From IMG/VR virus record IMGVR_UViG_3300032116_000060, positions 39,086-103,085 of that record: a stretch of 64,000 nucleotides of DNA, one strand, 5' to 3'. This document shows, in pieces, positions 11,184-28,854 of the stretch. The position numbers and the translations under genes are program-made. The notes below the pieces were generated by a model. The model ran no database searches. It was not told where the DNA came from and worked only from the letters and a program-made list of their open reading frames with translations. The number at the start of each line of letters is the position of its first letter. Positions within the stretch are counted from its first letter, which is position 1. This DNA comes from a virus (lineage: Duplodnaviria; Heunggongvirae; Uroviricota; Caudoviricetes).

Positions 11184-11185
11184 AA

Positions 11186-11204
11186 TACAAATATACGAAA
11201 AAAG
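11186..11204 (-). promoter_or_regulatory. class-A promoter box abutting the uvdE start (leaderless-type spacing)
   Basis: TACAAATATACGAAAAAAG, 3 nt from the ATG. Confidence 0.4.
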
Positions 11205-11221
11205 AATGGATTTAACAAATC

Positions 11222-11794: not shown

Positions 11795-12167
11795 TTTTTA
11801 CTATATAATTTGTATCATAGGCCTTTACCGACGGTAGCCCACTATATTCACAAAATGCTTCATCTCTATGTCTTTTAAGTTCTTCTTTCGCATCTTCGGA
11901 AAAGTATATACCATCACTTTCCATATCAGCGATAGTTCTATGCATTGCCTTATAAATAACCTCCTTATCTTTCTTCGGAACTTTCTGGTCATCAAATAAT
12001 CGTGCCATCAAAACGAATAGGGCTTCTCTACCATATTTTTTTTCATTTGGGTCTGGATTATACCCCTCTCTACCCATTCGGCTAAACTCTCTATACATTG
12101 TAACGCCAAATACAATGAATAGGGTTGCTACAATAGATGTTAGAATGTATATATCTAAATTTTCCAT
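11760..12167 (-). CDS. membrane-anchored hypothetical protein
   Basis: 135 aa with an N-terminal TM helix. Confidence 0.5.
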   Translation of the reverse strand: MENLDIYILTSIVATLFIVFGVTMYREFSRMGREGYNPDPNEKKYGREALFVLMARLFDDQKVPKKDKEVIYKAMHRTIADMESDGIYFSEDAKEELKRHRDEAFCEYSGLPSVKAYDTNYIVKNEKLNRSIPSR

Positions 12168-12168
12168 C

Positions 12169-12345
12169 TTACTTTTTTGTTTTGTTGGTTACATAATTTA
12201 ACAAGCCTATAATAGTAGGTGGCCACAATCCAATAAAGATTGCTTTGTTTACATTATTTTCAATGAGGTAGTAATACTCCGATACGAAGATTAATACGAT
12301 TGAGATTGCTAAGATTAATAGCTCCGATGTTTTAAAGTTTTTCAT
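12169..12345 (-). CDS. small membrane protein
   Basis: 58-aa ORF (below the ORF-track cutoff); ATG 12343-12345, stop 12169-12171; abuts the next gene. Confidence 0.35.
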   Translation of the reverse strand: MKNFKTSELLILAISIVLIFVSEYYYLIENNVNKAIFIGLWPPTIIGLLNYVTNKTKK

Positions 12346-12351
12346 TTTTGT

Positions 12352-12525
12352 TTAATTTTTATCAATAAGTGCATCAACTAATACATACCCAAACACCATA
12401 ATACCAATGGGTAGATTTACCGAGTATCCAAACGATACCGCTAATCCTAATCCTATTACTAATCTTATGGCCTTTAACCCATCTTTAAGGGTTCTTTTAT
12501 ACCAATAATCAAAATATGGTTTCAT
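12352..12525 (-). CDS. small membrane protein
   Basis: 57-aa ORF; ATG at 12523-12525, 20 nt downstream of the class-A promoter box. Confidence 0.35.
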   Translation of the reverse strand: MKPYFDYWYKRTLKDGLKAIRLVIGLGLAVSFGYSVNLPIGIMVFGYVLVDALIDKN

Positions 12526-12542
12526 TTAATAATTTTTAGTTA

Positions 12543-12577
12543 TTACAAATATACGAAAAAAGGCTTGAATTACCAAG
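12543..12577 (-). promoter_or_regulatory. class-A intergenic unit: hairpin GGCTTGGTAATTCAAGCC + T6 + CGTATATTTG (Bacteroidota-type -7 TAnnTTTG) on the coding strand; doubles as the groL terminator
   Basis: read on minus strand: GGCTTGGTAATTCAAGCC TTTTTT CGTATATTTG; about 20 nt upstream of the next ATG. Confidence 0.5.
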
Positions 12578-12610
12578 CCTTTTCCCTATTATTTTACCTA
12601 TTTTTAAGGT

Positions 12611-14257
<1,647 letters not shown>

Positions 14258-14263
14258 TTAATT

Positions 14264-14539
14264 TTAAAGGATTACAAAAATATCGGATTCTTTTAATAGA
14301 AGGTATTTCTCACCTTCAATTTCAATTTCAGTTCCACCATATTTTCCGAATAGAACTGTATCACCTACTTTAACGGTTAATGGTTCATCTACTTTCCCAT
14401 TACCAATTGCAACTACTTCACCCCTTTGTGGTTTTTCTTGTGCGGTATCGGGAATGATAATACCTCCTGCGGTTTTCTCCGCCTTTTCCTCAGGTTTTAC
14501 AATAACCCTGTCGTGTAATGGTTTTACATTTACGCTCAT
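14264..14539 (-). CDS. groS: co-chaperonin GroES (Cpn10)
   Basis: 91 aa; mobile loop and GD motifs; immediately upstream of groL. Confidence 0.9.
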
Positions 14540-14605
14540 AATTTATTTTATTTTTTAGTTTTACTTTATATTACAACTGTCATACCATCAACATATTATT
14601 GACAA

Positions 14606-14622
14606 ATTGTCAGCTGTTTTGA
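14606..14622. promoter_or_regulatory. inverted repeat TTGACAAATTGTCAG between the promoter box and groES (candidate heat-shock or other operator)
   Basis: TGACAA-A-TTGTCA palindrome in the 5' leader of groES. Confidence 0.3.
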
Positions 14623-14629
14623 AATGTGA

Positions 14630-14649
14630 ATACAAATATACGAAAAAAA
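14630..14649 (-). promoter_or_regulatory. class-A promoter box upstream of groES-groL
   Basis: TACAAATATACGAAAAAAA on the plus strand = TTTTTTTCGTATATTTGTA on the coding strand; a TTTG sits about 21 nt upstream. Confidence 0.45.
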
Positions 14650-14656
14650 TATGAAA

Positions 14657-15103
14657 TTACAAAGGAATATTTTCAGTATATGCTTCTAGTATCTCCTCAC
14701 CCTTTTTGATGTCTCTTAAAGCGATTCCATCATTTGAAATGTTTGTATCACCAAAGTTAGGATATGCACTATTACAAAAACAAAATGAATTGTAGAAAAA
14801 ATTCAGTCCATTAAATAATCTAACTATCTTAAACCCATCTACTCTACTAATATAATGTTTATCTATTTGGGATTGAACCTCTTCCGGCAGTTCTCTAAAT
14901 CTTTTATTTTCTATTATGTAAAGTCCCGTTGGGTGTTCCCATTGTGGAAAAACTTCTTCTCCTGCTAATATATCTCTAATAGCAAAAACACCAATTCCAT
15001 CAATAGGAGAATGGCGTATTTCAGTTTTTATATTATGTTTAAAGTGATGAAGTAATAACTCCATCTGAACCTCTCTACTTCGTTTTTCCATATTCCTTTT
15101 CAC
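14657..15103 (-). CDS. SET-domain protein (putative lysine methyltransferase)
   Basis: N-SET-like GIGVFAIRDILAGEEV and post-SET-like IALRDIKKGEEILEAY blocks; Cys-rich stretch. Confidence 0.45.
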   Translation of the reverse strand: MKRNMEKRSREVQMELLLHHFKHNIKTEIRHSPIDGIGVFAIRDILAGEEVFPQWEHPTGLYIIENKRFRELPEEVQSQIDKHYISRVDGFKIVRLFNGLNFFYNSFCFCNSAYPNFGDTNISNDGIALRDIKKGEEILEAYTENIPL

Positions 15104-15299
15104 CGACTAATTGATAGGCCTTCCATAGATTATGCTGTGCCTTTTCTAATTTCTTCACTATATCAGAATGGTATATGGTTAAAGGATGGTCTAATAAATG
15201 GTCTTGCACATTCATCATTACAATATGAATTCTATCCATTAACTCTAAATAATGGCCATCATTAATTTCCGAATTCTTTTTTTGTTTCTTTGATGACAT
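15075..15299 (-). CDS. hypothetical protein
   Basis: 74-aa ORF. Confidence 0.45.
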   Translation of the reverse strand: MSSKKQKKNSEINDGHYLELMDRIHIVMMNVQDHLLDHPLTIYHSDIVKKLEKAQHNLWKAYQLVGEKEYGKTK

Positions 15300-15431
15300 C
15301 TGATACTGATTTAGTTGGTTCTTCTTTCATATTTCTTAATGCCCTAATGATGAATTCACTTATCTTACTCTTCTTATCTAATTTTTTTACTAACTCATTT
15401 AGAGTATCCAAATCCTCATAAAATTTGCCCA

Positions 15432-15689
15432 TTATATACCAGTTGATTTTAGCTTTTGATTTTGTATAAATGATTCATATTGAACTTTATCTAATCCCCC
15501 ATCAAAATCATTAAATAGTAAATAGATTTTACCATCTAAACCAACTTCAATTGCTGAGAATCCAAATCCTTCACATATAATTGGTTTATAATAACCTCTC
15601 GGAATACTTTCTGCTTCAGCTACTATATCAAAATCCCACGGAAATCCCGAATCATAAATTTCTGCCCATTGTTTACTAAATTCTGCCAT
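15432..15689 (-). CDS. hypothetical protein
   Basis: 85-aa ORF. Confidence 0.5.
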   Translation of the reverse strand: MAEFSKQWAEIYDSGFPWDFDIVAEAESIPRGYYKPIICEGFGFSAIEVGLDGKIYLLFNDFDGGLDKVQYESFIQNQKLKSTGI

Positions 15690-15690
15690 A

Positions 15691-16203
15691 TTAATATTGA
15701 ATTAAACTATATACGAGCTTGCCACCAATTTTGATTTCAGAATGTAAGTAAGTTAAATCTATTAAGGTAACTGCCCCAATTACTTTATATCCTGCATTAT
15801 TTAATAACTTTTCAGCTGCTATTAATGTACCCCCTGTTGCCAACACATCATCTACAATAATTACTTTATTGAATTTATCCTCACATTCTTTTACTTCTAG
15901 CATTTCAGTTCCATATTCTTTGGTGGAGAATGTTGCAACTTTTGGTGGCGGGAGTTTACCTTCTTTACGAATGGGAATGAATCCTTCTCCATTCAAAGCT
16001 GCAATTGCTGAACCGAATATAAAACCCCTACTTTCAATACCTGCTATATTTACGATTCCAAATTTATCATCTATCAAAACTGAAAGGTCATCTATTACTG
16101 ATGAAAATGCTTTTTGTGATGCTAATAGTGGTGTGATGTCTTTGAAAATGATATCCTTTTTTGGAAAATCACTTACATCTCTAATGTATTCTTTGTAATC
16201 CAT
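15691..16203 (-). CDS. apt: adenine phosphoribosyltransferase
   Basis: 170 aa; type I PRTase PRPP-binding motif VIIVDDVLATGGT and APRT-like N-terminus. Confidence 0.8.
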   Translation of the reverse strand: MDYKEYIRDVSDFPKKDIIFKDITPLLASQKAFSSVIDDLSVLIDDKFGIVNIAGIESRGFIFGSAIAALNGEGFIPIRKEGKLPPPKVATFSTKEYGTEMLEVKECEDKFNKVIIVDDVLATGGTLIAAEKLLNNAGYKVIGAVTLIDLTYLHSEIKIGGKLVYSLIQY

Positions 16204-16757
16204 TATAATTTGAAGTTTGGTAGCTTTTTGTCTTTATCGGAAACCTTTGCCAATCGATTATCGAATCCCCAATCTATATTGAGTGTAGGGTCGTTGTAAA
16301 CAATTCCACCTTCCGAATCCTTGTTATAATAATTATCAACTTTGTAATTAAAAACCGCTTCCGCTGATAAAACTGAAAATCCATGTCCACATCCTTTCGG
16401 AACAAATACCATTCTACCATTCTTATCACTCAAATCTATTGTAATATGCTTACCATAGGTTTCCGAATCATGTCTCAAATCCACAATTACATCTCTCACT
16501 AATCCATAAGAACATCTTACTAATTTCGATTGTGCCCATTCTCCTTGCTGAAAATGAATACCCCTAACCACTTTTTGAGTTGAAAACGATTCATTATCTT
16601 GTACAAACTCTATACTTTGTCCGGTGGTAATCTTAATTGCTTCTTCTAAAACCTCCTTAACGAATGGTGTAGAAAAATACCCCCTCTCATCCTTAAACAC
16701 ATCAGGCTTAATGATTAGACAATCTTTGATTTTAGTTTTTTCAATCTTATATGTCAT
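16203..16757 (-). CDS. dTDP-4-dehydrorhamnose 3,5-epimerase-like cupin (RmlC family)
   Basis: 184 aa; RmlC-like blocks (DERGYF, RGIHFQ, GxAHGF). Confidence 0.7.
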   Translation of the reverse strand: MTYKIEKTKIKDCLIIKPDVFKDERGYFSTPFVKEVLEEAIKITTGQSIEFVQDNESFSTQKVVRGIHFQQGEWAQSKLVRCSYGLVRDVIVDLRHDSETYGKHITIDLSDKNGRMVFVPKGCGHGFSVLSAEAVFNYKVDNYYNKDSEGGIVYNDPTLNIDWGFDNRLAKVSDKDKKLPNFKL

Positions 16758-16916: not shown

Positions 16917-16924
16917 ACAATATG

Positions 16925-17012
16925 CGGAGAGAGTAGGATTCGAACCCACGGAACAGTTTCCCGTTCTCTTGATTTCAAGTCAAGTGCGATAGACCAACTC
17001 TGCCATCTCTCC
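16925..17012 (-). tRNA. tRNA-Ser(TGA)
   Basis: hand-folded: 7-bp acceptor GGAGAGA, T-loop UUCGAAU, long variable arm, anticodon loop CUUGAAA. Confidence 0.6.
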
Positions 17013-18355: not shown

Positions 18356-18413
18356 CTTTTATGAATTTATTTTTACAAATATACCGCTATTATTTTAATT
18401 TTCCAAATTTATT

Positions 18414-19553
18414 TTAATGTGAATCACCTACATTATGTTTTTCAGCGAAAATTAAATAGTCAGGGTTGATTACCTTTGCTATCTTCTCTCTACCTTTAGA
18501 TTGATGTTTGATTACAATACCCTCCTCTGGCACTTTAGTACCTTTGATGTAATTATTGAATACATACTTATCTTGCACTTCTTGTGACCATCTACCATAG
18601 TATAATTGTTCAACATAAGGTAATTCTAAAATATGTTCGATTAATAATTTTGAATTAATTGGGTCTAAATACTCACCTTCCTCCTTTACATCGAATCCTA
18701 CGAACTCAATTTCTTTCAACCCATAATCATATCCCTTTTGGATTCCGGCTCCATAAATCTCACCGTATAAGGTAATACCATCTCCAATTATATCATAATC
18801 GGATGATTTTACATAATCCCACAACTTTTGTTTGATGTTATATTTCTTTTCGATTTCATACCAAACATTAGTATCATAGAATCCATTAGAATCTGAGCCT
18901 TTCTCTACGTTATGAGAACCCACTACGAATTCGTATTCAGCCCATTTCCATTCCGGCTTAACCTTTTTAGCCAATGAGATTTTTAATCTATCCCAAATAG
19001 TTAATTTAGCTTTCTTAACAATACCATAACGGGCATTAGTTCCGTGAATCTTACGAGTGATTTCAACTGTATCCTCTTCGGTGAACATATTAGGCACATT
19101 CTTTAAATTAGGGAATTTGTAATAGACATGGAAGTTTGGATTGTCTTGATAACGAATTTTCTTACCCCCTGCTAATTGTACCATCTTTACAGGTGGTTCA
19201 TATTTGTAAATATCCATTACCTTCATCATATCCTTACCTTCATAGTAATTTTCCATAAAAGGAATATGTTGGATTGGAATGATTAAACATTCTGAATAAA
19301 CACCTCTTAATTTAACGGTTCTAACTCTACCACCTTTTCGTAAGTAGTTAGTAACACCCATCTTTTCAGATAATTCAAATGGAACAATAGCATCGGTTGT
19401 AGCAACCATTACTAAGTCTCCTATTTTTTGCTCACCTTTTTTAGTGATACAATTCCAACCACCAACTACTGCTAATTCAATGTTATCAGCTCCTTCGATT
19501 GGGTTAATCTCATTGATTGCTGCAATGTAGCAAACTGAATTATTATTTTCCAT
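18414..19553 (-). CDS. ATP-dependent RNA ligase-like protein (N-terminal OB fold + nucleotidyltransferase domain)
   Basis: motif I-like KIHGTN, motif IV-like EGIVIK, C-terminal KxxK; OB/tRNA-binding-like N-terminus INPIEGADNIELAVVGGW. Confidence 0.55.
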   Translation of the reverse strand: MENNNSVCYIAAINEINPIEGADNIELAVVGGWNCITKKGEQKIGDLVMVATTDAIVPFELSEKMGVTNYLRKGGRVRTVKLRGVYSECLIIPIQHIPFMENYYEGKDMMKVMDIYKYEPPVKMVQLAGGKKIRYQDNPNFHVYYKFPNLKNVPNMFTEEDTVEITRKIHGTNARYGIVKKAKLTIWDRLKISLAKKVKPEWKWAEYEFVVGSHNVEKGSDSNGFYDTNVWYEIEKKYNIKQKLWDYVKSSDYDIIGDGITLYGEIYGAGIQKGYDYGLKEIEFVGFDVKEEGEYLDPINSKLLIEHILELPYVEQLYYGRWSQEVQDKYVFNNYIKGTKVPEEGIVIKHQSKGREKIAKVINPDYLIFAEKHNVGDSH

Positions 19554-19557
19554 ATCT

Positions 19558-19974
19558 TTATAATTTTACTTCAAATCGATTTTTCATTTGTTCTAACTTA
19601 TCAGTAGGAACTCCGTGCTGATTTACTCCACCATGTCTATTTTCCATAATCAAAGTGAATACCTTATACCCATACTTTTCTGCTAACTTAAAGTATTCAT
19701 CCATTTCCCACTCTTGTGTAAATGTATTTGATACTACAATTTCAGGATAGTATTGTGGTTTTGCTTCGTTATCTTTCATACGAATTTCCACTTGCTCTCT
19801 ACACCATTGATGTGCTTGCTTTATCTTACTACCATCAAAGTTGTAATTACCTTCTTTATCATAGAAGAATTTATCAGCTTCACATATTGCATAGTCATTC
19901 CATACAAAATTAGCAAATGTACTTTTACCACTTCCTGGTAATCCTCTTAATAACACTAATGTTTTTGGTATCAT
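19558..19974 (-). CDS. P-loop polynucleotide kinase-like protein
   Basis: Walker A LLRGLPGSGKST; size and position match a Pnk kinase domain. Confidence 0.6.
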   Translation of the reverse strand: MIPKTLVLLRGLPGSGKSTFANFVWNDYAICEADKFFYDKEGNYNFDGSKIKQAHQWCREQVEIRMKDNEAKPQYYPEIVVSNTFTQEWEMDEYFKLAEKYGYKVFTLIMENRHGGVNQHGVPTDKLEQMKNRFEVKL

Positions 19975-19977
19975 AAT

Positions 19978-20235
19978 TTATTTTATTAATTCAAATACAT
20001 GCCATACAAAATATCCATCCATATAGGTTGTGATATATTTCATATTATCTTCAACCTGCCACCCAGTACCTACAATACAAATATGCCTTTCTTCCGATTC
20101 GGATGTATTAGGATTTACCAAAGCCCAAAGAGTTGGCATTTGATTTTGTAATTTCACCGTTAGAAGTTCTGAACCTTTAGGTAATTGTAAAGTACAATCC
20201 TGTGAATCTAATGTGTATTTATAAATTGTTTTCAT
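19978..20235 (-). CDS. hypothetical protein
   Basis: 85-aa ORF between the phosphoesterase and kinase genes. Confidence 0.5.
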   Translation of the reverse strand: MKTIYKYTLDSQDCTLQLPKGSELLTVKLQNQMPTLWALVNPNTSESEERHICIVGTGWQVEDNMKYITTYMDGYFVWHVFELIK

Positions 20236-20240
20236 AATTT

Positions 20241-20894
20241 TTATTTATAATTTTCTACAATCTCGTGATGGTCAAAATTGAATATAGATTTGACCGGCCT
20301 GTTCTCCATTATCCTCAATACTTCTTGCATTTGAATAGGATATAACATATTACCATCACAGCCAACATCCATCATCTTACCCACTTGCAATCTCAAATTA
20401 GGATTGAAATGAACATGCCCATGCAAATGAATTGCCCCTCTTGCCATATTGTTCCAACTGGCAATTGGGAAGTGCATTAATACAAAGTTTTGTTCACCCA
20501 TTAGAGGAGTTCCAACATTCCACTTCACATTTAATTCAACATATTTGTTTACCGAATTAAATAATGTTTGACAATTATCTCTATTGTTTTCAATATGATG
20601 GTCGTGATTACCTGTAATGATATGAATGTTATTACATACAATTTGTTCTCTAAACTTTTGTATTTGTTCAAATCCACCAAAACTCCAATCGCCCAAATGG
20701 ATTAATATATCATCTTGTCTTACAACTTCATTAATGTTCCCAACTAAATGTGAATTCATATGTTCTAATGTTTTGAATTCCCTTAAAGTTACCGGGTCTT
20801 TCCATTTTGTTGTTGCACTACATATATTAGCGTGGTTATAATGGGTATCACTTGTAAACCATAATCTTTGCCCTTTATTTAATGCTATTCTCAT
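20241..20894 (-). CDS. calcineurin-like metallophosphoesterase
   Basis: motifs DTHYNH, GDWSFGG, GNHDHH, HGHVH. Confidence 0.75.
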   Translation of the reverse strand: MRIALNKGQRLWFTSDTHYNHANICSATTKWKDPVTLREFKTLEHMNSHLVGNINEVVRQDDILIHLGDWSFGGFEQIQKFREQIVCNNIHIITGNHDHHIENNRDNCQTLFNSVNKYVELNVKWNVGTPLMGEQNFVLMHFPIASWNNMARGAIHLHGHVHFNPNLRLQVGKMMDVGCDGNMLYPIQMQEVLRIMENRPVKSIFNFDHHEIVENYK

Positions 20895-21484
20895 TTTAAA
20901 AAGTTTAGTATCTTTTCTTTAATTCCAGTTTGTTTAATACCTTCGGTGCTACGCGGTGTTTCTACAAAGTTATCCAACCCCCATTCATGCTCATATGGAA
21001 CTGAATAATCCATTCCACTCTTCCCCATTCTCAAATCATCAACTGAAACCCAATGTGTAATTTCAGGATGATCGTTTAGGTATTGTTTAATTTCAATAGT
21101 TCTAGTTTGTTCCAATTCCCAAGCTCTACTCCAAATGAATCCCGCTGGATAAGCATCAATATACCAAGTACAATTACCCAAATTAGGAGTAAAGGCAATC
21201 GGTTTCTTTTTGATTCCCTTTGATTCATAATACTCACCCATCTCCTCAACATTTGCCCATCTTTTCCAATCAGATGATATAACAATTTCAGCATCAGTTT
21301 CTTCTAAAATTTCATTTAGTATCTTAACCGCTTTCTTGTTAAAATTATCAAACCGCATTTCAACGGGCATCTCTTTAATACCCTGGCTCATCTTACGGCC
21401 AAACTCTCTTTGTTTTTTATGCCTACTACCCCATTCAGTTGATAAACATATCACACCATCGTGGTCTAAAAAAATTACTTTCAT
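20891..21484 (-). CDS. HAD-superfamily phosphatase-like protein (DxDGV motif)
   Basis: N-terminal VIFLDHDGVI (HAD motif I), SSDW and DD motifs; resembles the T4 Pnkp 3'-phosphatase / 5'(3')-nucleotidase fold. Confidence 0.5.
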   Translation of the reverse strand: MKVIFLDHDGVICLSTEWGSRHKKQREFGRKMSQGIKEMPVEMRFDNFNKKAVKILNEILEETDAEIVISSDWKRWANVEEMGEYYESKGIKKKPIAFTPNLGNCTWYIDAYPAGFIWSRAWELEQTRTIEIKQYLNDHPEITHWVSVDDLRMGKSGMDYSVPYEHEWGLDNFVETPRSTEGIKQTGIKEKILNFLK

Positions 21485-21487: not shown

Positions 21488-21685
21488 TTATTTTACTAAC
21501 CAATTTACTAATCCTTTCCAATCTAATGCAAATAGAGATAATGTTCCCATAGATAATGCGATTACTGCACAACCTAATTCATTTAACTCACCGGCAAAAT
21601 AACGCTGTGGGATTGAACCATTTAGAATTGCAACTCCAATCGAAATGGAAAGAATTGAAGTTAATATAATTTGATAATTTTTCAT
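21488..21685 (-). CDS. small membrane protein
   Basis: 65 aa, two TM helices. Confidence 0.4.
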   Translation of the reverse strand: MKNYQIILTSILSISIGVAILNGSIPQRYFAGELNELGCAVIALSMGTLSLFALDWKGLVNWLVK

Positions 21686-21713: not shown

Positions 21714-22340
21714 TTAATACTCTTTTACAATCCAATTTGAAGGATTAGCCAATCTCACTTCATAGTTCCTACCTACTTTAATTAAGTATCTTTTAGTTAA
21801 TCGATTTTTGTATGGTATTTGAAGAGATTTTAAAATATGAACAAAGCTATTTGAACCAAATGATTTCTTATAAAATTCATTCATTTTGGTAAAACTAGCA
21901 TTTCCATTTTTTTCAACAAAATCTAAAATTGATTGTGTAATACCTTTTGAATTTTTAATTGTTTCATTAACAACACCATTTCCAAAAGAAGGTAGGTTCA
22001 AAGTTTTAAATGAATACACATCAGTTACCTCATATTTTCCAAATTCAGAATAATGATTCATAACCATCATTAAAACATTAAGGTAATGGGTAAGTTGTGT
22101 AGATTTTTCACCTTTTACCATTTTAATAGTACAAATATGATGATAACCATTCTCATCATCTCTATTCACATCAAATGGAACTTCACCATCGGTTTCCCAA
22201 TTTGGTGTGGCGTAAATGGAGATTTCTCTTTCCTTATCATACCATTCCAAAGTTCCACTTCGAGAATCTAAATGACCTACATAAGAACCAATCTCCTTAA
22301 TTTCACTTAAAATTTCATTAGGGGTAATCCAATTATTCAT
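21714..22340 (-). CDS. hypothetical protein
   Basis: 208-aa ORF; class-B promoter at 22353-22394. Confidence 0.55.
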   Translation of the reverse strand: MNNWITPNEILSEIKEIGSYVGHLDSRSGTLEWYDKEREISIYATPNWETDGEVPFDVNRDDENGYHHICTIKMVKGEKSTQLTHYLNVLMMVMNHYSEFGKYEVTDVYSFKTLNLPSFGNGVVNETIKNSKGITQSILDFVEKNGNASFTKMNEFYKKSFGSNSFVHILKSLQIPYKNRLTKRYLIKVGRNYEVRLANPSNWIVKEY

Positions 22341-22352: not shown

Positions 22353-22394
22353 TATTACATAATAAAGATAGTAAAAATTGTTGAATTTTCCAAG
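22353..22394 (-). promoter_or_regulatory. class-B motif
   Basis: TATTACATAATAAAGATAGTAAA ... TTGAATTTTCCAAG. Confidence 0.45.
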
Positions 22395-22441
22395 AAAAAG
22401 GGAGAAAATAAGCCATTGGAAATCAATCGTTTATAAAAATG

Positions 22442-22512
22442 TTACCCGAGCTGGATTCGAACCAACCCTAAATGCACCAAAAACATTTGTGCTACCGCTA
22501 CACCATCGGGCA
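22442..22512 (-). tRNA. tRNA-Gln(TTG)
   Basis: hand-folded cloverleaf; T-loop UUCGAAU; anticodon loop UUUUGGU; CCA not encoded. Confidence 0.55.
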
Positions 22513-22647
22513 ATAATCTCAAGCATTCTACTCCCCGCAGTACGGAATTGTATCTTACTTAGCCCATCGTTAGCGGTATGGGTACTTGAGTTTCTGTGAA
22601 CGAAAAACATCTATTTTTCTTCTGGCCTATCCACAATGGCCCACTTG

Positions 22648-22719
22648 AGCGGATGATAGGAATCGAACCTACGTCTCCAACTTGGAAGGATGGAGTAATA
22701 ACCATTATACGACATCCGC
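22648..22719 (-). tRNA. tRNA-Gly(TCC)
   Basis: acceptor GCGGAUG/CAUCCGC, T-loop UUCGAUU, anticodon loop CUUCCAA. Confidence 0.55.
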
Positions 22720-22730
22720 TTTTGTTTGTT

Positions 22731-22807
22731 TGGTGGGCCAGATAGGAATCGAACCTATTACCTCCGCATTATGAGTGCGTTGCTCTAACCGAATGAGCTA
22801 CAAGCCC
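22731..22807 (-). tRNA. tRNA with CAT anticodon (Met or Ile2), CCA encoded
   Basis: acceptor GGGCUUG, D arm GCUC-AUUCGGUUA-GAGC, anticodon loop CUCAUAA, T arm AUAGG-UUCGAUU-CCUAU, encoded CCA. Confidence 0.55.
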
Positions 22808-22865
22808 TAACATCGTTTAATCTGATGATAAAATGAATTATCTTTTCTTTCAACGATAAATAAAG

Positions 22866-22986
22866 GTGCCGGTGAAAGGATTGGTTACCTATACGATGTC
22901 CATTTCGGATACACCCCCTATCTAGAATTCAGGACGTCTAATGGTTTCTATTCGAATTCAAACCCATTCATTCCGCCACACCGGCA
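22866..22986. ncRNA. structured tRNA-like element of unclear nature
   Basis: perfect 7-bp terminal helix gccggtg...caccggc enclosing about 107 nt containing ttcgaat and palindromic gaattcgaattc; no canonical cloverleaf found. Confidence 0.2.
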
Positions 22987-22993
22987 TATATCT

Positions 22994-23185
22994 TTAATCA
23001 ATATCTTCTACTTCAGTTATAGTGAAATCCTCACCACCTGATGTTTCCTTTTGCCAGAAATCACCATTATCTTCAATCTCACCACTCTCTACCAATTCAA
23101 TTGCATCATCTTCGGTTTCTGCTTCAACGGTGTAAGTAACATACTCATCGATTGTTCTTACGCCTGTAATTGTAAATCTTTTCAT
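22994..23185 (-). CDS. small acidic protein
   Basis: 63-aa ORF, Glu/Asp-rich. Confidence 0.45.
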   Translation of the reverse strand: MKRFTITGVRTIDEYVTYTVEAETEDDAIELVESGEIEDNGDFWQKETSGGEDFTITEVEDID

Positions 23186-23197
23186 ATTGTTTTATTT

Positions 23198-23274
23198 TGG
23201 TGGAGAATACAGGAGTCGAACCTGTGGCCTTTTGAATGCAAATCAAACGCTCTAGCCAACTGAGCTAATCCCCC
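23198..23274 (-). tRNA. tRNA-Ala(TGC)
   Basis: 5' GGGGGAUUAGCUCAGUUGG; G3:U70; anticodon loop UUUGCAU; CCA encoded. Confidence 0.65.
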
Positions 23275-23286
23275 TTAAAATTCACG

Positions 23287-23370
23287 TACCAGAGGTGGGA
23301 CTCGAACCCACACGAGCTTTCAGCTCAATTGATTTTAAGTCAATCTTGTCTACCATTCCAACACTCCGGC
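23287..23370 (-). tRNA. tRNA-Leu(TAA)
   Basis: long variable hairpin GAGCUGAAAGCUC; anticodon loop CUUAAAA; T arm GUGGG-UUCGAGU-CCCAC. Confidence 0.6.
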
Positions 23371-23413
23371 ATTATTTAAATCAAATGTACGAAAACGATT
23401 GAAAGAAAACAAG

Positions 23414-23869
23414 CTATTTTAAAATTTTATTTACAGCATACAATTTTACTTTCGTAAACTTATTCCCATCTTCATCAGGATTAATAAGTATATCTATCTT
23501 ATTTCGGAATCGTTTATTCATCAAATCCCTTACATAGTAAATACCATCTAAATTACCTGCTCCTTTAATTCTTACTTTTTCCCCAAATTTTAACTTTCGT
23601 TTAAGGTCTCTACTAACTGCTATTACCTTTTGTTTCTTTGGATTTATACTATCCAATTTGTAACCACTTGCGGTAATTAATGGAGTTGAATCAGTTTCTT
23701 CTTCGGTAATTGAATATGTCGTCGCCGTTACCAAATGATAATCTGGTCTTTTCCTTTCAATTATGTCATCTACAATTTGCTCTTCACTTTTTACCACTTC
23801 ATTATTATGTGGAATAAAGGCAATTGTTATGATAAACAAAATCAATAATTTCGTAATTGTTATTTTCAT
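23414..23869 (-). CDS. secreted 3D-domain protein (cell-wall-binding or lytic-transglycosylase-like)
   Basis: signal/anchor N-terminus; 3D-domain-like blocks TATTYS..TASG..VIAVS..GAGNLDGIYYVRDL. Confidence 0.5.
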   Translation of the reverse strand: MKITITKLLILFIITIAFIPHNNEVVKSEEQIVDDIIERKRPDYHLVTATTYSITEEETDSTPLITASGYKLDSINPKKQKVIAVSRDLKRKLKFGEKVRIKGAGNLDGIYYVRDLMNKRFRNKIDILINPDEDGNKFTKVKLYAVNKILK

Positions 23870-23883
23870 ATTTTATTTGTTTG

Positions 23884-23957
<74 letters not shown>

Positions 23958-24038
23958 ATTGCGGTCTATAAGGGTTACGCTCCCTTTACTTCACAGTGAC
24001 AGTGTGATATGATAACTACTTCACTAATAGACCTTTTG

Positions 24039-24112
24039 AGCCTCCGGTCGGATTCGAACCAACGACAACCTGATTACAAATCAGGAGCTCTGGCCAACTG
24101 AGCTACGGAGGC
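24039..24112 (-). tRNA. tRNA-Thr(TGT)
   Basis: perfect acceptor GCCUCCG; anticodon loop UUUGUAA. Confidence 0.65.
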
Positions 24113-24120
24113 CTATTATG

Positions 24121-24192
24121 TACTCGGTACGGGATTCGAACCCGTGCTACATCCGTGAAAGGGATGTGACCTAACCCCTAGTCCAACCGAGC
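24121..24192 (-). tRNA. tRNA-Glu(TTC)
   Basis: anticodon stem CAUCC/GGAUG, loop CUUUCAC; 3-bp D stem. Confidence 0.6.
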
Positions 24193-24193
24193 A

Positions 24194-24616
24194 TTAAAAT
24201 GGTAAATTTATTGAATGGGATGCAAATGTATTATTAGATGCTTTTAATTTAGTTTGTTTAAGACCACTTAAAAAATTTAAATAACTATTTACCATACTAT
24301 TTTTAACTAATTCGCTTCCCATTTGTTTCATAAATTCATTTATATCTAAAAGGTCTTTTCTTCTAAATACTCTTTTTATATTCGGAGTGATTTGTTGTTG
24401 AGGTAAATTAACACTCATTAAAAATTCATCAAACTCACCTTCTTTAAGAAACACTTCTATAAAAGTTTCCCCAACCGAATCACTATCACACATAGTAAAG
24501 CAATAGGTAGTTTTACCCAATTCATCTTCGGTGGTATATGTTGTATCAATAGCCAAATCCATACCTGCTAATATAATAAACTTATACCTTAACTTATCCC
24601 AATTGATTATCTTCAT
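24194..24616 (-). CDS. hypothetical protein
   Basis: 140-aa ORF; class-A box 7 nt upstream (24620-24638). Confidence 0.5.
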   Translation of the reverse strand: MKIINWDKLRYKFIILAGMDLAIDTTYTTEDELGKTTYCFTMCDSDSVGETFIEVFLKEGEFDEFLMSVNLPQQQITPNIKRVFRRKDLLDINEFMKQMGSELVKNSMVNSYLNFLSGLKQTKLKASNNTFASHSINLPF

Positions 24617-24619
24617 CGT

Positions 24620-24638
24620 TTACAAATATACGAAAAAT
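24620..24638 (-). promoter_or_regulatory. class-A promoter box
   Basis: TTACAAATATACGAAAAAT. Confidence 0.4.
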
Positions 24639-24660
24639 ATCTGATATATCCAAAAAAAGT

Positions 24661-25116
24661 TTAACCCTTTACGATATGGTCAGCAGCGTATGTAGCAATT
24701 GGGCCTAATGTTTTATATCTAACCGCATACCCCATTCCTTCCACCATACCAACTGCTTGTCTGAACACTTCGTTTGATTTATATCGAGGATCAGGATTCA
24801 AATCAATATCAATCCATTTAACCTTCGGTAATCCTGCATTTTTAATACTTTCAGCAACTTCAATAGCATACCAAACTTCATTTAATAATCTGGTTGCCCT
24901 TACTCTTTCTCTTTGTGTATTCCATCTTCTATAAAGAACATGCGCACCTTTACCTCTATGATATAAGGCAACTACAATGGCATATATTGTCTTATCAACA
25001 TAGTTTTGTGAATCACATCCGATAAGTATATCTACATCATTATTCGTTTGAAGATAATCATTTAGATAATCAATCAAACTAACTTTTTCTCCATCGTATA
25101 GCCGTTTGTATTCCAT
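24661..25116 (-). CDS. hypothetical protein (possible RNase-H-like fold)
   Basis: 151-aa ORF; ILIGCDSQ motif. Confidence 0.5.
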   Translation of the reverse strand: MEYKRLYDGEKVSLIDYLNDYLQTNNDVDILIGCDSQNYVDKTIYAIVVALYHRGKGAHVLYRRWNTQRERVRATRLLNEVWYAIEVAESIKNAGLPKVKWIDIDLNPDPRYKSNEVFRQAVGMVEGMGYAVRYKTLGPIATYAADHIVKG

Positions 25117-25137
25117 ATTATTACTTTTTTAGTTTTG

Positions 25138-25212
25138 TGCCCATAGAAGGATTCGAACCTTCAATTGGATGGCTTCTAAGACCATTGCGTATGCCAATTC
25201 CGCCATACGGGC
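25138..25212 (-). tRNA. tRNA with Leu anticodon TAG but class-I (short variable arm) architecture
   Basis: acceptor GCCCGUA/UAUGGGC; anticodon stem AUGGU/GCCAU, loop CUUAGAA; variable region only 6 nt. Confidence 0.45.
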
Positions 25213-25220
25213 ATTTTGAG

Positions 25221-25306
25221 TAGAGAGTAAGAGGTTCGAACTCTTGCGACTTTTACATCCTACCTGTTTAGCAAACAGGCCCCTTCACCAACTTGGGTAA
25301 CTCTCT
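25221..25306 (-). tRNA. tRNA-Ser(GCT)
   Basis: 86 nt with a long variable arm; anticodon loop UUGCUAA; acceptor AGAGAGU. Confidence 0.6.
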
Positions 25307-25371
25307 ATTTTGGTAGTTTTTAATCTCAATTCGGGTAAGAGGAGATACCAGCTCCAGAACTCGGGGTTGGG

Positions 25372-25443
25372 GGTGAATAATGGGATTCGAACCCATACTA
25401 ACAGAACCACAATCTGTCGTGCTACCCTTACACAATAAACACC
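25372..25443 (-). tRNA. tRNA-His(GTG) with G-1
   Basis: anticodon loop UUGUGGU; extra 5' G opposite C73; two U-U mismatches in the acceptor stem. Confidence 0.5.
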
Positions 25444-25451
25444 ATATTAAG

Positions 25452-25521
25452 TTGCGTGTTTGAGGTTTGAACTCAATTGGTCATCCTTATGAGAGATAAC
25501 TCTTTTCCACTAAGCCACGCA
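25452..25521 (-). tRNA. second tRNA with CAT anticodon (atypical D arm, 7-bp anticodon helix)
   Basis: T arm UUGAG-UUCAAAC-CUCAA; anticodon loop CUCAUAA; weak D arm. Confidence 0.4.
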
Positions 25522-25526
25522 GTTTG

Positions 25527-25597
25527 AGGTGGATATTGGATTTGAACCAATGTGAATGGTTTTGCAGACCACCTCCTCGCCTCTCGGACAATCCACC
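25527..25597 (-). tRNA. tRNA-Cys(GCA)
   Basis: acceptor GGUGGAU; U73 discriminator; anticodon loop CUGCAAA. Confidence 0.6.
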
Positions 25598-25603
25598 CTA
25601 TTG

Positions 25604-25675
25604 TAGCCCCTAAAGGATTCGAACCCTTACTCCAACATCCGTAGTGTTGTGTGCTATCCGTTACACCAAAGAGCC
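25604..25675 (-). tRNA. tRNA-Arg(ACG)
   Basis: anticodon stem CAACA/UGUUG, loop CUACGGA; acceptor has three G-U wobbles. Confidence 0.5.
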
Positions 25676-25679
25676 ATCG

Positions 25680-25871
25680 TTATTTCCATTGAGTCTTTCG
25701 GCTGTGTTTCCAACTTCTACACTCTCTTACTCTTACAACCTTACCACTACCATGTCTTTTTGCTCTGAACGATGATGGATGACAATCATAATACCAACTT
25801 CCATTTCGTTTGTTACAAATCATACAATAGTTGTAGATTTGATTCATTTGTTTTACTCTTTCTTCTTTCAT
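25680..25871 (-). CDS. small Cys/His-rich zinc-ribbon-like protein
   Basis: 63-aa ORF (CMICNK...DCH). Confidence 0.3.
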   Translation of the reverse strand: MKEERVKQMNQIYNYCMICNKRNGSWYYDCHPSSFRAKRHGSGKVVRVRECRSWKHSRKTQWK

Positions 25872-26074
25872 TTTGCATTAGGTTTAACTAATGCTTGTCA
25901 AATAATTGTTTCATAGTTTTACATTTATATTATTCACCGCCGTAAATAACAACTTTATCAAATTTTAATCCACCCCAATACCTTATAATAACACATTTAT
26001 TGTTGTAGCAAAATTCTATACTTGGATAATTGTTTTTTAAATCAAAGTTTATTTTCATAGTTTTATTCATTTAG

Positions 26075-26146
26075 CACCCCCTAAAAGATTCGAACTTTTA
26101 TCAACGGTTTTGGAGACCGGTATGCTAGCCATTGCACCAAGGAGAT
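26075..26146 (-). tRNA. tRNA-Trp(CCA)
   Basis: anticodon loop CUCCAAA; G73; acceptor with two G-U pairs. Confidence 0.55.
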
Positions 26147-26237
26147 AGTTAATAAGGCGTTACGCATCCATCTGTAACTTTACTTTTTTTGAGTCCGGAT
26201 GTGGCCACACCAACTCTGGGAACGATTACCTTATTTG

Positions 26238-26311
26238 TTGGAATAGAAAGACTCGAACTTTCAACTTTCACCGTATCAGGATGACACTCTAACCAATTGA
26301 GTTATATTCCA
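26238..26311 (-). tRNA. tRNA-Ile(GAT)
   Basis: perfect acceptor UGGAAUA; D arm ACUC-AAUUGGUUA-GAGU; anticodon loop CUGAUAC. Confidence 0.6.
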
Positions 26312-26317
26312 ATTTTG

Positions 26318-26393
26318 TATAGATGGTTGGATTCGAACCAACGTGTTCCACTTCCCAAAAGTGGCGAGATAAACCTGCCTCCTCTACATCTAT
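26318..26393 (-). tRNA. tRNA-Pro(TGG)
   Basis: anticodon stem CCACU/AGUGG, loop UUUGGGA. Confidence 0.55.
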
Positions 26394-26443
26394 ATGGCCG
26401 GCTCCGATTTTTGTATAGAACGTTGCCGAAGTAAACTATTTTG

Positions 26444-26517
26444 TGAACCCGAATGGACTCGAACCATTGACTTTCTCATTAAAAGTGAGAAGCTCTAACC
26501 AACTGAGCTACGAGTTC
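26444..26517 (-). tRNA. tRNA-Lys(TTT)
   Basis: D arm GCUC-AGUUGGUUA-GAGC; anticodon loop CUUUUAA. Confidence 0.65.
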
Positions 26518-26523
26518 ATTGTG

Positions 26524-26596
26524 TGGAGCCTTGAGGAATCGAACCGCATCCTTCCGCTCTTCAGGCGGACGTACGCACCAGCTATACGAAAGCTCC
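26524..26596 (-). tRNA. tRNA-Phe(GAA)
   Basis: anticodon stem UCCGC/GCGGA, loop CUGAAGA. Confidence 0.6.
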
Positions 26597-26601
26597 AATT
26601 G

Positions 26602-26683
26602 TGCCTGCAGATGGACTCGAACCACCGAACTCCGAAGAGAGGAGATTTACAGTCTCCAGCAATTGCCACTATGCGATACAGGC
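26602..26683 (-). tRNA. tRNA-Tyr(GTA)
   Basis: 82 nt with a long variable hairpin UCUCUUCGGAGU; anticodon loop CUGUAAA. Confidence 0.6.
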
Positions 26684-26691
26684 ATAAATTG

Positions 26692-26765
26692 TAGAAGATA
26701 TAGGATTCGAACCTATGACCCTTTGGATGTAAACCAAATGCTCTAACCAACTGAGCTAATCTTCT
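26692..26765 (-). tRNA. tRNA-Val(TAC)
   Basis: perfect acceptor AGAAGAU; anticodon loop UUUACAU. Confidence 0.65.
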
Positions 26766-26796
26766 ATTTTCCCACAATGTCAAAGAACCTTTCTTG

Positions 26797-26868
26797 CGTT
26801 GATGGTAGGATTCGAACCTACGACCAATAGATTAACAGTCTACTGCGCTACCACTGCGCCACACCAAC
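26797..26868 (-). tRNA. tRNA-Asn(GTT)
   Basis: D arm GCGC-AGUGGUA-GCGC; anticodon loop CUGUUAA. Confidence 0.6.
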
Positions 26869-28380
26869 ATAAACTAAAAAACCCCCTAACTTTTTCAGTT
26901 AGAGGGTTCTTCTAATATTGTTCAAAAATCTATATTTTATCCCACATCGGTATCCTCTAACTTATTCGTGCTAATATAATCCACCTTGCCTAAATTCAAG
27001 AATGACGGATTCTCTATCGCACTAAACATACTAATCCCCGTCCATTCACATCTCTGTGTAGGCAGTTGATAATCTGTATGTAAGTTAAGAGTTTTCATTT
27101 TCTTCTAATATAAGTATAACACTATTTCTTTTTAAATCAATTTAGCTAAAAAATAAGTAACCGGTCTTCAAAATACTCCATCCAAGTCATGCTCTGGTTA
27201 ATACCCGCCTCGACAAGTTACTCATAAAAATGAAAGATTTGTAGGGTGGTTCTTTCAAAAGGCCTAGCTACAGCCGTTTTTACCATCAATTAAATTCGCT
27301 TTGTTGAGATTGTTTAAGGCGAAAATCCCCTACGGAAAACCATACCATCATACATTTTTTCATTTTTTATTAAAGTGGAACTTTCAGTTGTCTAGAAGAT
27401 ACATCTAACTTTCTGCCGGAAACCACTACGAAGCTATCATCATTGGAATCGAACCAACATTAACCATTATGATAATAAAATAAGGATGAGAATACTCCAT
27501 ATTGTGAACCAGCTTTTGAAAGATTATTTGTTTCCTTTCGTTTCCACTTCCTTTTGAGAAGTACCAATTCAATGTCGGTTGGTATAGCCAACCAATCTTA
27601 GAGTTACATCTTACTCTCATCATACTCATTTTCTTCTACTCTGCCGAGCAGATTCACACTTGCGGTGTTAGAAACCTTTCAAATGAATCACATTCCCCTT
27701 GAGGAGGTCTGTGGCAGTGAACAACTCACTACTATGTAGACACCTTTCGGATGTAACTGGCAAACTCTTTTTCTTATTTTTATTTATAGTTTTTACACCG
27801 AAGTAAAAATGAGTTTGGTTTGTAGATGGTTTCAGGTAGTGGTTTGCCTTAAGCTCCGTTATCTTTTGAACAACGGAATACTTTACTACCCGATACGATA
27901 TCCCTATCGTCATACTTTAAGTCATCTTCATTTATAGGTGTTGGTACACTCTATAAAAGGATGGTAACAGCACCACCTGTACACTATCTTATCTCAAAAG
28001 GTTTCCCTAATTTGATTTTAAGATAACTTTGGTATTGAATCACGCAATGATAAAGAGAGATTAAGTCTTTACTTCTTGCATTAATTCTATGAGTTATTCT
28101 TATTGGTATTCCTACCTCAACTGAACAATCTACACTTGCCCAGTCACCTCTACTCCTCTCCTAAAGTGTTACCCTCAGATACTAAGCATTTGTGATACCT
28201 CACTTGCATACTCGAGCTCATCTCCCTTACGGGGGAGGAGCCGCAAATCGATTAAACCAAACCGATTCACTTTATCCTTCTTTCGAAGTTTATTTAACGA
28301 CCATATGCGGCCACTCTATTATGTAACACAAAGTTACTATATAGAAATTAGTTTCAATAATTTAAAGAACTTTTCTTTGT

Positions 28381-28757: not shown

Positions 28758-28825
28758 TGCAACGCCTAGGAATCGAACCTAGTTAATTTGGCTTATGAGA
28801 CCAACGAGATACCTCACCTCCCGCC
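28758..28825 (-). tRNA. tRNA-like CAT-anticodon element with defective acceptor pairing (possible pseudogene or initiator-like)
   Basis: T arm CUAGG-UUCGAUU-CCUAG; anticodon loop CUCAUAA; D arm plausible; 5' acceptor strand does not pair. Confidence 0.3.
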
Positions 28826-28854
28826 TGCTATTTTAAAGAACTTATTTTATTATT

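Follow-up and report, generated by a model that had tools for sequence, protein, structure and literature searches.

A probable phage operon for RNA end healing and sealing, with a predicted Rnl5-family ligase, inside a GOLLD-headed tRNA island

Results

Organisation of the locus

The stretch analysed here, from now on the window, comprises 64,000 nucleotides of the tailed-phage (Caudoviricetes) record IMGVR_UViG_3300032116_000060 in IMG/VR (positions 39,086 to 103,085), and this study concerns a module of five minus-strand genes within it which encode, in order of transcription, a phosphatase of the HAD superfamily, a calcineurin-like metallophosphoesterase (MPE), a small DUF7352 protein, a P-loop kinase and an ATP-dependent RNA ligase (Table 1). 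The five open reading frames (ORFs) are consecutive and were found in the ORF list exactly where the initial annotation had placed them, as were the motifs it had quoted, DHDGV at residues 7–11 of the HAD protein and KIHGTN (residues 168–173) and EGIVIK (residues 344–349) in the ligase. The genes are tightly packed, the stop codon of the HAD gene and the start codon of the MPE gene overlapping by 4 nt and the remaining junctions measuring 3–5 nt, and the GC content of the module (33%) is equal to that of the remainder of the window.

Table 1. Features of the module and its surroundings, in order of transcription (positions in the window).
Feature	Position	Strand	Length	Source or remark
GOLLD RNA (conserved 3' domain)	27483..27893	minus		head of the tRNA island; Rfam RF02032, full model, 303 bits vs gathering score 150
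Island of 22 tRNA genes	22441..26868	minus		transcriptionally upstream of the module; ARAGORN, Rfam
Promoter-like motif TTGGAAAATT-N13-TATCTTTA	22363..22393	minus		between tRNA-Gln and the 208-aa ORF; putative start of the unit
208-aa ORF	21714..22340	minus	208 aa	first gene after the promoter-like motif; ORF list
65-aa ORF	21488..21685	minus	65 aa	small, rich in hydrophobic stretches, 3 nt upstream of the HAD gene; ORF list
HAD_SAK_2 phosphatase gene	20891..21484	minus	197 aa	stand-alone HAD superfamily; predicted RNA 3'(2')-phosphomonoesterase
Calcineurin-like MPE gene	20241..20894	minus	217 aa	predicted 2',3'-cyclic phosphodiesterase and/or 3'-phosphatase
DUF7352 gene	19978..20235	minus	85 aa	small all-beta protein; facultative insert between MPE and kinase
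P-loop kinase gene	19558..19974	minus	138 aa	minimal form, polynucleotide-kinase clade; predicted RNA 5'-OH kinase
RNA ligase gene	18414..19553	minus	379 aa	predicted Rnl5 family, ATP-dependent; OB and nucleotidyltransferase domains
Promoter-like motif TTGGAAAATT-N13-TATATTTG	18376..18406	minus		8 nt after the ligase stop codon; putative downstream boundary of the unit
tRNA-Ser(tga)	16924..17012	minus		1.4 kb downstream of the ligase; ARAGORN

The RNA ligase

A Pfam scan of the ligase revealed PF21189 (PHA02142 OB) at residues 10–94 (E 3.4e-15) and PF09414 (RNA_ligase, E 3.2e-14), and the comparison with TIGR02306 (RNA_lig_DRB0094, the model of DraRnl) gave an E value of 1.5e-28 over residues 10–367. 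With 99.7 bits the protein misses the equivalog cut-off of this model (151.15 bits), and it appears as a clear full-length homologue that is more distant than the curated orthologue set. NgrRnl was matched with an E value of 8e-18 using the single sequence and 2.5e-22 using a profile, T4 Rnl2 being the next true ligase at 0.005, and the alignment extends over the OB domain (residues 9–128 against 9–132 of NgrRnl; domain E 3.9e-15 for the single sequence and 2.6e-17 for the profile).

The motifs of the ligase were located as I (T166-R-K168-I-H170-G171), III (G264-E265), IV (E344-G-I-V-I-K349) and V (A359-K360), all of them invariant or at least 90% conserved among 69 relatives, and tentative placements could be made for motif Ia (S213-H214) and for the aromatic residue of motif IIIa (Trp322). 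In DraRnl the motifs 163-TEKLHG, FGEVV, EGVVV and SVK have been defined by mutagenesis, and the Rnl5 family is characterised by the lack of a C-terminal domain, the protein ending ~30 aa after motif IV (PMC1807946). The ligase of the window has no C-terminal domain either; it ends at residue 379, 35 aa past motif IV. Judged from its domain order, motifs and absent C-terminal domain it is assigned to the Rnl5 (DraRnl/NgrRnl) family, and the earlier call of an RNA-ligase-like protein could be made more specific by the TIGR02306 and NgrRnl matches. Capping enzymes and DNA ligases, named beforehand as the families that would speak against this call, are ruled out by the Rnl5 profile matches.

The kinase

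The kinase matched AAA_33 in Pfam (E 1.6e-11) and, in PHROG, both phrog_2071 (1.3e-38) and phrog_505, "polynucleotide kinase" (2.7e-6). Its P-loop, G11-L-P-G-S-G-K17-S, and D34 are invariant among the relatives. When a profile of 17 relatives was searched against PDB the best match was T4 Pnk (E 3.5e-4), followed by Pnkp1, seryl-tRNA(Sec) kinase and the kinase of Clostridium thermocellum Pnkp, and D34 was aligned with the catalytic Asp35 of T4 Pnk. An AF2 model (pLDDT 79, the last 20 residues being poor) was compared with PDB using Foldseek, and C. thermocellum Pnk (3e-6) and T4 Pnk (1.4e-5) together occupied ranks 1–6 (3e-6 to 2e-5), followed by Pnkp1 (5e-5) at rank 9 and UMP-CMP kinase at rank 14. 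The matches to T4 Pnk and Pnkp by both profile and predicted fold uphold the initial polynucleotide-kinase-like call and suggest a minimal P-loop form within the polynucleotide-kinase clade.

A function as dNMP kinase was considered and rejected in view of the profile and fold ranks, in which the polynucleotide kinases come first. The tail HGVP-x-x-K-L-x-x-M-K-x-R-F and the motifs SNT and ENRH may correspond to features of the N4BP2/CNPase-type kinase domain. A second P-loop kinase of 281 aa, of the AAA_33/Zeta-toxin type and distinct from the 138-aa protein of the module, is encoded at 33794–34639 (minus) of the window.

The phosphoesterases and DUF7352

The HAD protein matched PF18143, "HAD domain in Swiss Army Knife RNA repair proteins", with an E value of 9.4e-21 (75.1 bits, cut-off 27.5), which agrees with the HAD-type phosphatase proposed from the first inspection and places it in HAD_SAK_2. 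The residues D7-x-D9-G-V, S70/S71 and D149-D150 are invariant among 11 relatives; the Lys/Arg of motif III could not be assigned with confidence. No PDB relative was found by single-sequence or profile search. Stand-alone homologues of ~195 aa number more than 6,000, and many of them are encoded on contigs of phage size.

For the MPE, the matches were PF00149 (Metallophos, 22.4 bits against a cut-off of 21.5), PF12850 (E 3.5e-5) and phrog_547, "phosphoesterase" (6.4e-43). All six motifs of such enzymes (DxH, GD, GNH(D/E), H, GH and GHxH) are present, in line with the calcineurin-like metallophosphoesterase first suggested, and D16xH18, G68D69, G95N96H97D98, H141 and G159H160xH162 are invariant among 43 relatives. 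The sole solved relative is aq_1665 of Aquifex (1xm7), matched over the full length by a profile (E 1.1e-6), and the protein is best described as a predicted generic calcineurin-like enzyme of an uncharacterised subfamily.

The 85-aa protein between the MPE and the kinase belongs to DUF7352 (Pfam, E 2.6e-25) and was modelled as a seven-stranded all-beta domain (pLDDT 96.5), for which BFVD held matches only to other DUF7352 or unnamed phage proteins. The family is scattered over many unrelated phages and is often met in phages and loci whose neighbourhood lacks repair genes. It recurs beside an MPE gene, beside RNA ligases of three families and beside TROVE/cREC genes in four separate phage groups. 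A dedicated repair role is unlikely and DUF7352 is probably a passenger, since most related modules lack it and many of the phages that carry it have no repair genes. In the immuto-like phage locus L094 (924–7239) DUF7352 adjoins an MPE gene, with TROVE and cREC_REC genes nearby, and in two further phage groups (L010/L100 and L096) it is found a few genes downstream of PF09414-type RNA ligases.

Conservation of the module in related phages

The related loci (designated L with a number) are the best 80 of 157 confirmed matches from a scan of IMG/VR with the ligase, with 62–92% identity and on contigs of mostly 20–294 kb. They were searched with the window proteins over 6 kb on each side of the ligase and gave 69 distinct contexts. 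A kinase gene was found within this distance in 53 contexts, in 32 of the 69 directly upstream of the ligase (gap ≤300 nt), and an MPE gene in 41. Both were present in 40 contexts, with the order of the window in 28, while DUF7352 was found in three. Every match to the kinase, MPE, HAD and DUF7352 proteins lies on the ligase strand. Among the relatives the orders MPE-kinase-ligase, kinase-ligase-MPE and ligase-MPE-kinase all occur, so that gene order is not a constrained feature, and the phosphatase-kinase-ligase order that the initial annotation had regarded as unusual is one of several. The grouping of kinase, MPE and ligase, conserved as it is in relatives, goes beyond chance, and the linkage survives several rearrangements.

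In one close relative (L002, 1902–4598) a block of MPE, DUF7352 and kinase genes, 72–89% identical to that of the window, is followed by a ligase of the Rnl1 type (PF09511, 1.1e-13). Here the ligase has been displaced while the rest of the module is conserved. The healing block thus retains a ligase as its partner irrespective of the family, which argues that the healing enzymes need one.

The linkage on one strand of kinase and ligase, and of MPE, kinase and ligase, extends over a large clade of uncultivated phages of ~130–330 kb, and this clade is very abundant in metagenomes, where close homologues of the kinase and of the HAD protein run into the thousands. A DNA-level search of named phages revealed no close cultivated relative, the only match being Flavobacterium phage immuto with 67% over the MPE gene. 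A 112-kb contig, JBBAJS010000010.1 (L102), which was binned with a metagenome-assembled genome of Sediminibacterium sp. and is probably a phage contig, carries an MPE, a ligase (64% identity) and a kinase within 62552–75694.

Promoter-like motifs and transcription

The sequences behind the ligase stop codon and between tRNA-Gln and the 208-aa ORF have in common a composite motif, TTGGAAAATT-N13/14-TAnnTTT(G/A), which occurs five times in the window against 0.02 expected, always on the coding strand; besides the two sites in Table 1 it is located at 1398–1428, 40559–40589 and 55604–55634, all minus. In the 943 kb of related loci it was found 14 times on the coding strand and not at all on the other, and it stands at equivalent positions in L019, L026, L028 and L038: in L019 at the position of the 22363..22393 site, and in L026 and L028 after the ligase and before the homologue of a 142-aa ORF. 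The 10-mer TTGGAAAATT alone is not enriched, only the composite motif. Scans for sigma-70 promoters and intrinsic terminators between 16.5 and 23.5 kb gave no excess over shuffled sequence, and no intrinsic terminator was detected on the coding strand of this region.

The composite motif resembles the Bacteroidota promoter type with -33 TTTG and -7 TAnnTTTG, a likeness which suggests that it is a putative phage promoter. This promoter type, the Sediminibacterium bin and the match in phage immuto together hint at Bacteroidota hosts. Because the composite motifs bracket the genes, the 208-aa ORF, the 65-aa ORF and the HAD, MPE, DUF7352, kinase and ligase genes are probably transcribed as one unit, from ~22390 to 18414 on the minus strand.

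The first ORF of this unit (208 aa) had zero matches in Pfam, PHROG, NCBIfam and PADLOC, and among the related loci a homologue was found in L019 only (66% identity). The 65-aa ORF had no family match in the Pfam and PHROG scans. Both are, like DUF7352, probably passengers in the unit.

The tRNA island and GOLLD

The window contains 23 tRNA genes, all on the minus strand (ARAGORN, Rfam), and the module is embedded among them with 22 tRNAs before and tRNA-Ser(tga) after it. The initial annotation had placed the module upstream of the tRNA arrays, which is correct in plus-strand coordinates; in transcription the arrays precede the module. The tRNA-Ser that it had noted about 1.4 kb away was located on the downstream side. 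When 60 of the related loci were scanned, one or more tRNAs were found within 6 kb of the ligase in 29, always on the ligase strand. The end of the tRNA array is followed immediately by the HAD or the MPE gene in close relatives, and in L015, L017, L018, L019, L026 and L028 a tRNA-Ser(tga) follows the homologues of a 142-aa and an 85-aa ORF downstream of the ligase.

The conserved 3' domain of a GOLLD RNA was identified at the head of the island, and the layout of GOLLD, tRNAs and then MPE, kinase and ligase is also found in L024, L025, L028, L033/L042, L017 and L043–47. GOLLD was located at 541–950 in L024, 16–425 in L025, 1084–1497 in L028, 989–1398 in L033 and 10092–10514 in L053, the last being an exception in that the ligase precedes a cluster of tmRNA, GOLLD and tRNAs. 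GOLLD, an RNA with no known function, has been described beside tRNA islands before (PMC12286853), and no connection between GOLLD and an RNA ligase was found in the literature searched.

Phage tmRNA genes near the ligase were observed in L031 (11498–11872) and in L053 (9045–9405, directly before GOLLD and the tRNA array). In the window a weak match to the tRNA model, 31 bits and thus just over the gathering score, was obtained at 28758–28828 (minus) and was not called by ARAGORN; it lies ~0.9 kb upstream of the 3' domain of GOLLD, and in L028 a tRNA-Met precedes GOLLD likewise. The variable 5' half of GOLLD may lie in the ORF-poor stretch between 27.9 and 28.9 kb. Within the tRNA array, tRNA-Leu(tag) and tRNA-Glu are separated by an ORF at 24661–25116 (minus) that is Ribonuclease H-like (PF04308, 1.7e-18), and its product could be an RNA-processing enzyme linked to the tRNA island.

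Comparison with known RNA repair systems

A functional parallel in a studied phage may be drawn to T4, where a 5'-kinase, a 3'-phosphatase and ATP-dependent RNA ligases (Pnkp with Rnl1, and Rnl2) are likewise distributed over separate genes and are thought to reverse the cuts of anticodon nucleases. The kinase falls into the fold clade of T4 Pnk with D34 at the position of Asp35, and the HAD protein has the same predicted DxDG(V/T) aspartyl-phosphatase chemistry as T4 Pnkp. The differences are that T4 fuses kinase and HAD, which are separate here with the HAD protein belonging to HAD_SAK_2, that a metallophosphoesterase is added, and that Arg38 of T4 Pnk is not conserved. Furthermore, the ligase is a predicted nick sealer of the Rnl5 family with an N-terminal OB domain, whereas Rnl1 has a tRNA-specific C-terminal domain.

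With the bacterial Pnkp/Hen1 and Pnkp1-Rnl-Hen1 systems the module shares a P-loop kinase, a calcineurin-type metallophosphoesterase and an adenylyltransferase ligase. The kinase of C. thermocellum Pnkp is the top fold match, Pnkp1 was also matched, and in Pnkp1-Rnl-Hen1, too, the ligase has a gene of its own, separate from that of the kinase-phosphatase. However, four separate genes are found here instead of domains fused in one polypeptide, the ligase is of another clade (Rnl5), the match of the kinase to TIGR04075 (bacter_Pnkp) is negligible (0.0086), and the MPE matched no solved structure besides aq_1665. A scan of the module genes and five flanking ORFs gave no match to a Hen1-type methyltransferase. 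The module had initially been described as a split, Pnkp-like system; this holds in the functional sense, but membership of the Pnkp group was rejected given the lack of domain fusion, the lack of a Hen1 match in the scanned genes and the Rnl5 ligase.

The Rnl5 enzymes (DraRnl of Deinococcus radiodurans, NgrRnl of Naegleria gruberi and the homologue of Aeromonas phage 44RR2.8t) have in common with the ligase of the window the order of OB and nucleotidyltransferase domains, a KxHG motif I, the motifs III, IV and V, the lack of a C-terminal domain and significant full-length profile matches. They differ in being ~25–30% identical to it, in having S-K where the candidate motif Ia here is S213-H214 and Phe where the candidate IIIa residue is Trp322, and in genomic setting, the ligase here lying in a putative operon of healing enzymes while DraRnl and NgrRnl have no established physiological partners.

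The module further agrees with the modular RNA repair of phages and Swiss-army-knife (SAK) proteins (Iyer et al. 2021, PMC7824862), which brings together ATP-grasp-type RNA ligases, polynucleotide kinases and HAD or calcineurin-like phosphatases in tRNA-rich large phages, the stand-alone SAK-type HAD being explicit for jumbo phages. Two further points of supposed peculiarity are weak in this light. Activities on separate polypeptides are normal in phages, being found in T4 and reported in the jumbo-phage survey (PMC7824862), and the co-occurrence of two phosphoesterase folds has its counterpart in the SAK HADs and rarer calcineurin-like phosphatases listed there beside phage ligases and kinases. 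The split genes, their order and the two folds all fit a modular and shuffled organisation of phage RNA repair that is already described. The specific combination of Rnl5, a 138-aa kinase, an aq_1665-like MPE and HAD_SAK_2 as a compact operon in a GOLLD-headed tRNA island was not found in the literature searched, a search which did not extend to Burroughs and Aravind 2016.

Discussion

Proposed function

The enzyme families found by computation, the conservation of catalytic residues, the tight packing of the genes, the conserved linkage and the recurrent adjacency to tRNA genes make it likely that the module is a phage operon for the healing and sealing of RNA ends, serving RNAs, and among these probably tRNAs, that have been cut by host defence nucleases. 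Healing and sealing had been proposed for tRNA repair in the initial annotation, and this proposal is supported by the families, the catalytic motifs and the synteny, tRNA as the purpose being inferred. Phages are known to pair ATP-dependent RNA ligases with polynucleotide kinases and phosphatases against tRNA-cutting host nucleases, and the phosphatases in question are fused to Pnk, stand-alone "Swiss-army-knife" HADs or, in fewer phages, calcineurin-like (PMC7824862, section 3.4.9, which on this point cites Burroughs and Aravind 2016). The module is thus a further member of phage RNA-repair systems already recognised and not a new kind, and the Tad3 counter-defence gene in the same window (see below) fits such a setting.

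In the proposed mechanism, metal-independent defence RNases of the host, for example anticodon nucleases, would leave a 2',3'-cyclic phosphate and a 5'-OH. The MPE would open the cyclic phosphate and/or strip the resulting phosphate, and the HAD_SAK_2 aspartyl-phosphatase would remove a leftover 3'- or 2'-phosphomonoester to give a 3'-OH, while the small P-loop kinase would phosphorylate the 5'-OH. The Rnl5 ligase would adenylylate itself at Lys168, transfer the AMP to the 5'-phosphate and then join this end to the 3'-OH, the two ends presumably being kept together as a nick within a helix, as the analogous DraRnl and NgrRnl suggest. We infer both this division of labour between the two phosphoesterases and the RNA (tRNA) substrate and counter-defence purpose.

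Several observations weigh against the proposal of an RNA-repair operon. The related loci are phylogenetically linked, so that the synteny counts overstate the independent support, and among the 69 contexts the HAD gene, a facultative neighbour of the ligase, lies within 6 kb of it in 13 and the ligase stands alone within that distance in 12. In the kinase, Arg38 of T4 Pnk has no counterpart, the position being held by Phe or Tyr; R10, R113 and R133 are invariant among the relatives and could stand in for the acceptor-phosphate arginines of T4 (Arg38 and Arg126). The solved relative of the MPE, aq_1665, has no known function, and the Pfam score of the MPE barely passes. The characterised Rnl5 enzymes seal duplex nicks with an RNA 3'-OH strand and their physiological role has been called "uncharted" (PMC5397189), a connection of DraRnl with survival of radiation, and possibly with DNA repair, has been reported (PMC5397189, PMC4408790), and the sealing of anticodon loops is therefore not established for the family.

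The proposal can be extended to a larger conserved island that would protect translation, made up of GOLLD RNA, a near-complete tRNA set and the healing and sealing enzymes. The operon would be one working part of it, Rnl5 would gain a first physiological job in the resealing of broken tRNAs, and GOLLD and/or DUF7352 would assist the repair enzymes, perhaps by serving as a scaffold or container in parallel to Ro/Y-RNA in bacterial RNA repair. The kinase-ligase pair comes after a GOLLD-headed tRNA island both in the window and in seven or more distinct related contexts, but with GOLLD already known near tRNA islands and DUF7352 widespread without repair genes we hold this extension to be unlikely.

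Alternative explanations

A live rival to RNA repair, if quite an improbable one, is that the module mends nicks at RNA-DNA junctions or in ribonucleotide-containing DNA, such as phage genomes or replication intermediates with 3'-phosphate and 5'-OH ends, the kinase and phosphatases cleaning the ends and Rnl5 sealing nicks with a 3'-ribonucleotide. It is live because Rnl5 enzymes seal duplex nicks and DraRnl is tied to radiation survival. Kinases of the T4 Pnk type also act on DNA ends, and a UvdE UV-damage endonuclease is encoded 7 kb away in the window. DraRnl and NgrRnl need ribonucleotides only on the 3'-OH side of the nick and accept a DNA 5'-phosphate strand, and loss of DraRnl sensitises Deinococcus to ionising radiation, the authors leaving open whether DNA or RNA is repaired (PMC5397189, PMC1807946). 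The position of the module inside a tRNA island, recurrent in relatives, argues against junction repair, as do a HAD family named for RNA-repair proteins, the lack of DNA replication or repair genes inside the transcription unit and, in L002, a substitute ligase of the Rnl1 type, the family of the tRNA-repairing T4 enzyme.

It is very unlikely that the genes are mere neighbours, with the MPE and HAD proteins hydrolysing nucleotides or nucleotide-derived defence signals, the kinase acting on nucleosides or nucleotides and the ligase working alone. Such independent roles would suit a window rich in genes for nucleotide metabolism and counter-defence (a phosphoribosyltransferase, GMP reductase/IMPDH and Tad3), the MPE homologues of Flavobacterium phage immuto and L094, which have neither a kinase nor a ligase in their vicinity, a HAD gene that is usually away from the ligase and an MPE whose closest solved relative lacks a known function. 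The profile and fold matches of the kinase, however, are best to polynucleotide and tRNA kinases with UMP-CMP kinase lower, and the HAD protein is assigned to an RNA-repair family. Nor would mere neighbours account for the 32 of 69 contexts in which the kinase gene immediately precedes the ligase gene, or for the 40 in which kinase and MPE lie near the ligase on one strand despite the shuffled order.

That the module processes the RNAs of the phage itself, by joining or circularising pieces of a GOLLD-tRNA transcript or by maturing unusual tRNAs, is weaker as well and highly improbable: healing-and-sealing enzymes do perform eukaryotic tRNA splicing, and GOLLD, tRNA array and module are collinear on a single strand both in the window and in seven or more related contexts, but all 23 tRNAs were called as ordinary intact genes, a promoter-like motif stands between the island and the module, the kinase-ligase pair of many relatives lacks any tRNA or GOLLD within 6 kb, and no phage is known to require a ligase for the maturation of its own tRNAs.

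The module provides a clean and conserved genomic context for the role of Rnl5, next to a polynucleotide kinase and two phosphoesterases (as predicted) inside a tRNA island, and the four small separate enzymes are easy biochemical targets. The collinear GOLLD raises the question of a link between this unexplained RNA cage and the protection or repair of tRNAs. Phage RNA repair being a recognised counter-defence, another module of this kind is in itself unsurprising.

Other genes in the window

A search with PADLOC gave no meaningful match to a defence system. A homologue of Tad3, an inhibitor of Type I Thoeris (PF25185, 3.2e-26), is encoded at 6793–7437 (minus), so that other genes for counter-defence are present in this part of the genome. 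Downstream of the module, at 8352–16757 (minus), an auxiliary cluster encodes a GMP reductase/IMPDH-like enzyme, the UvdE UV endonuclease, a flavodoxin-like protein, a GroEL-type chaperonin, a SET-domain protein, a phosphoribosyltransferase and a dTDP-4-dehydrorhamnose epimerase.

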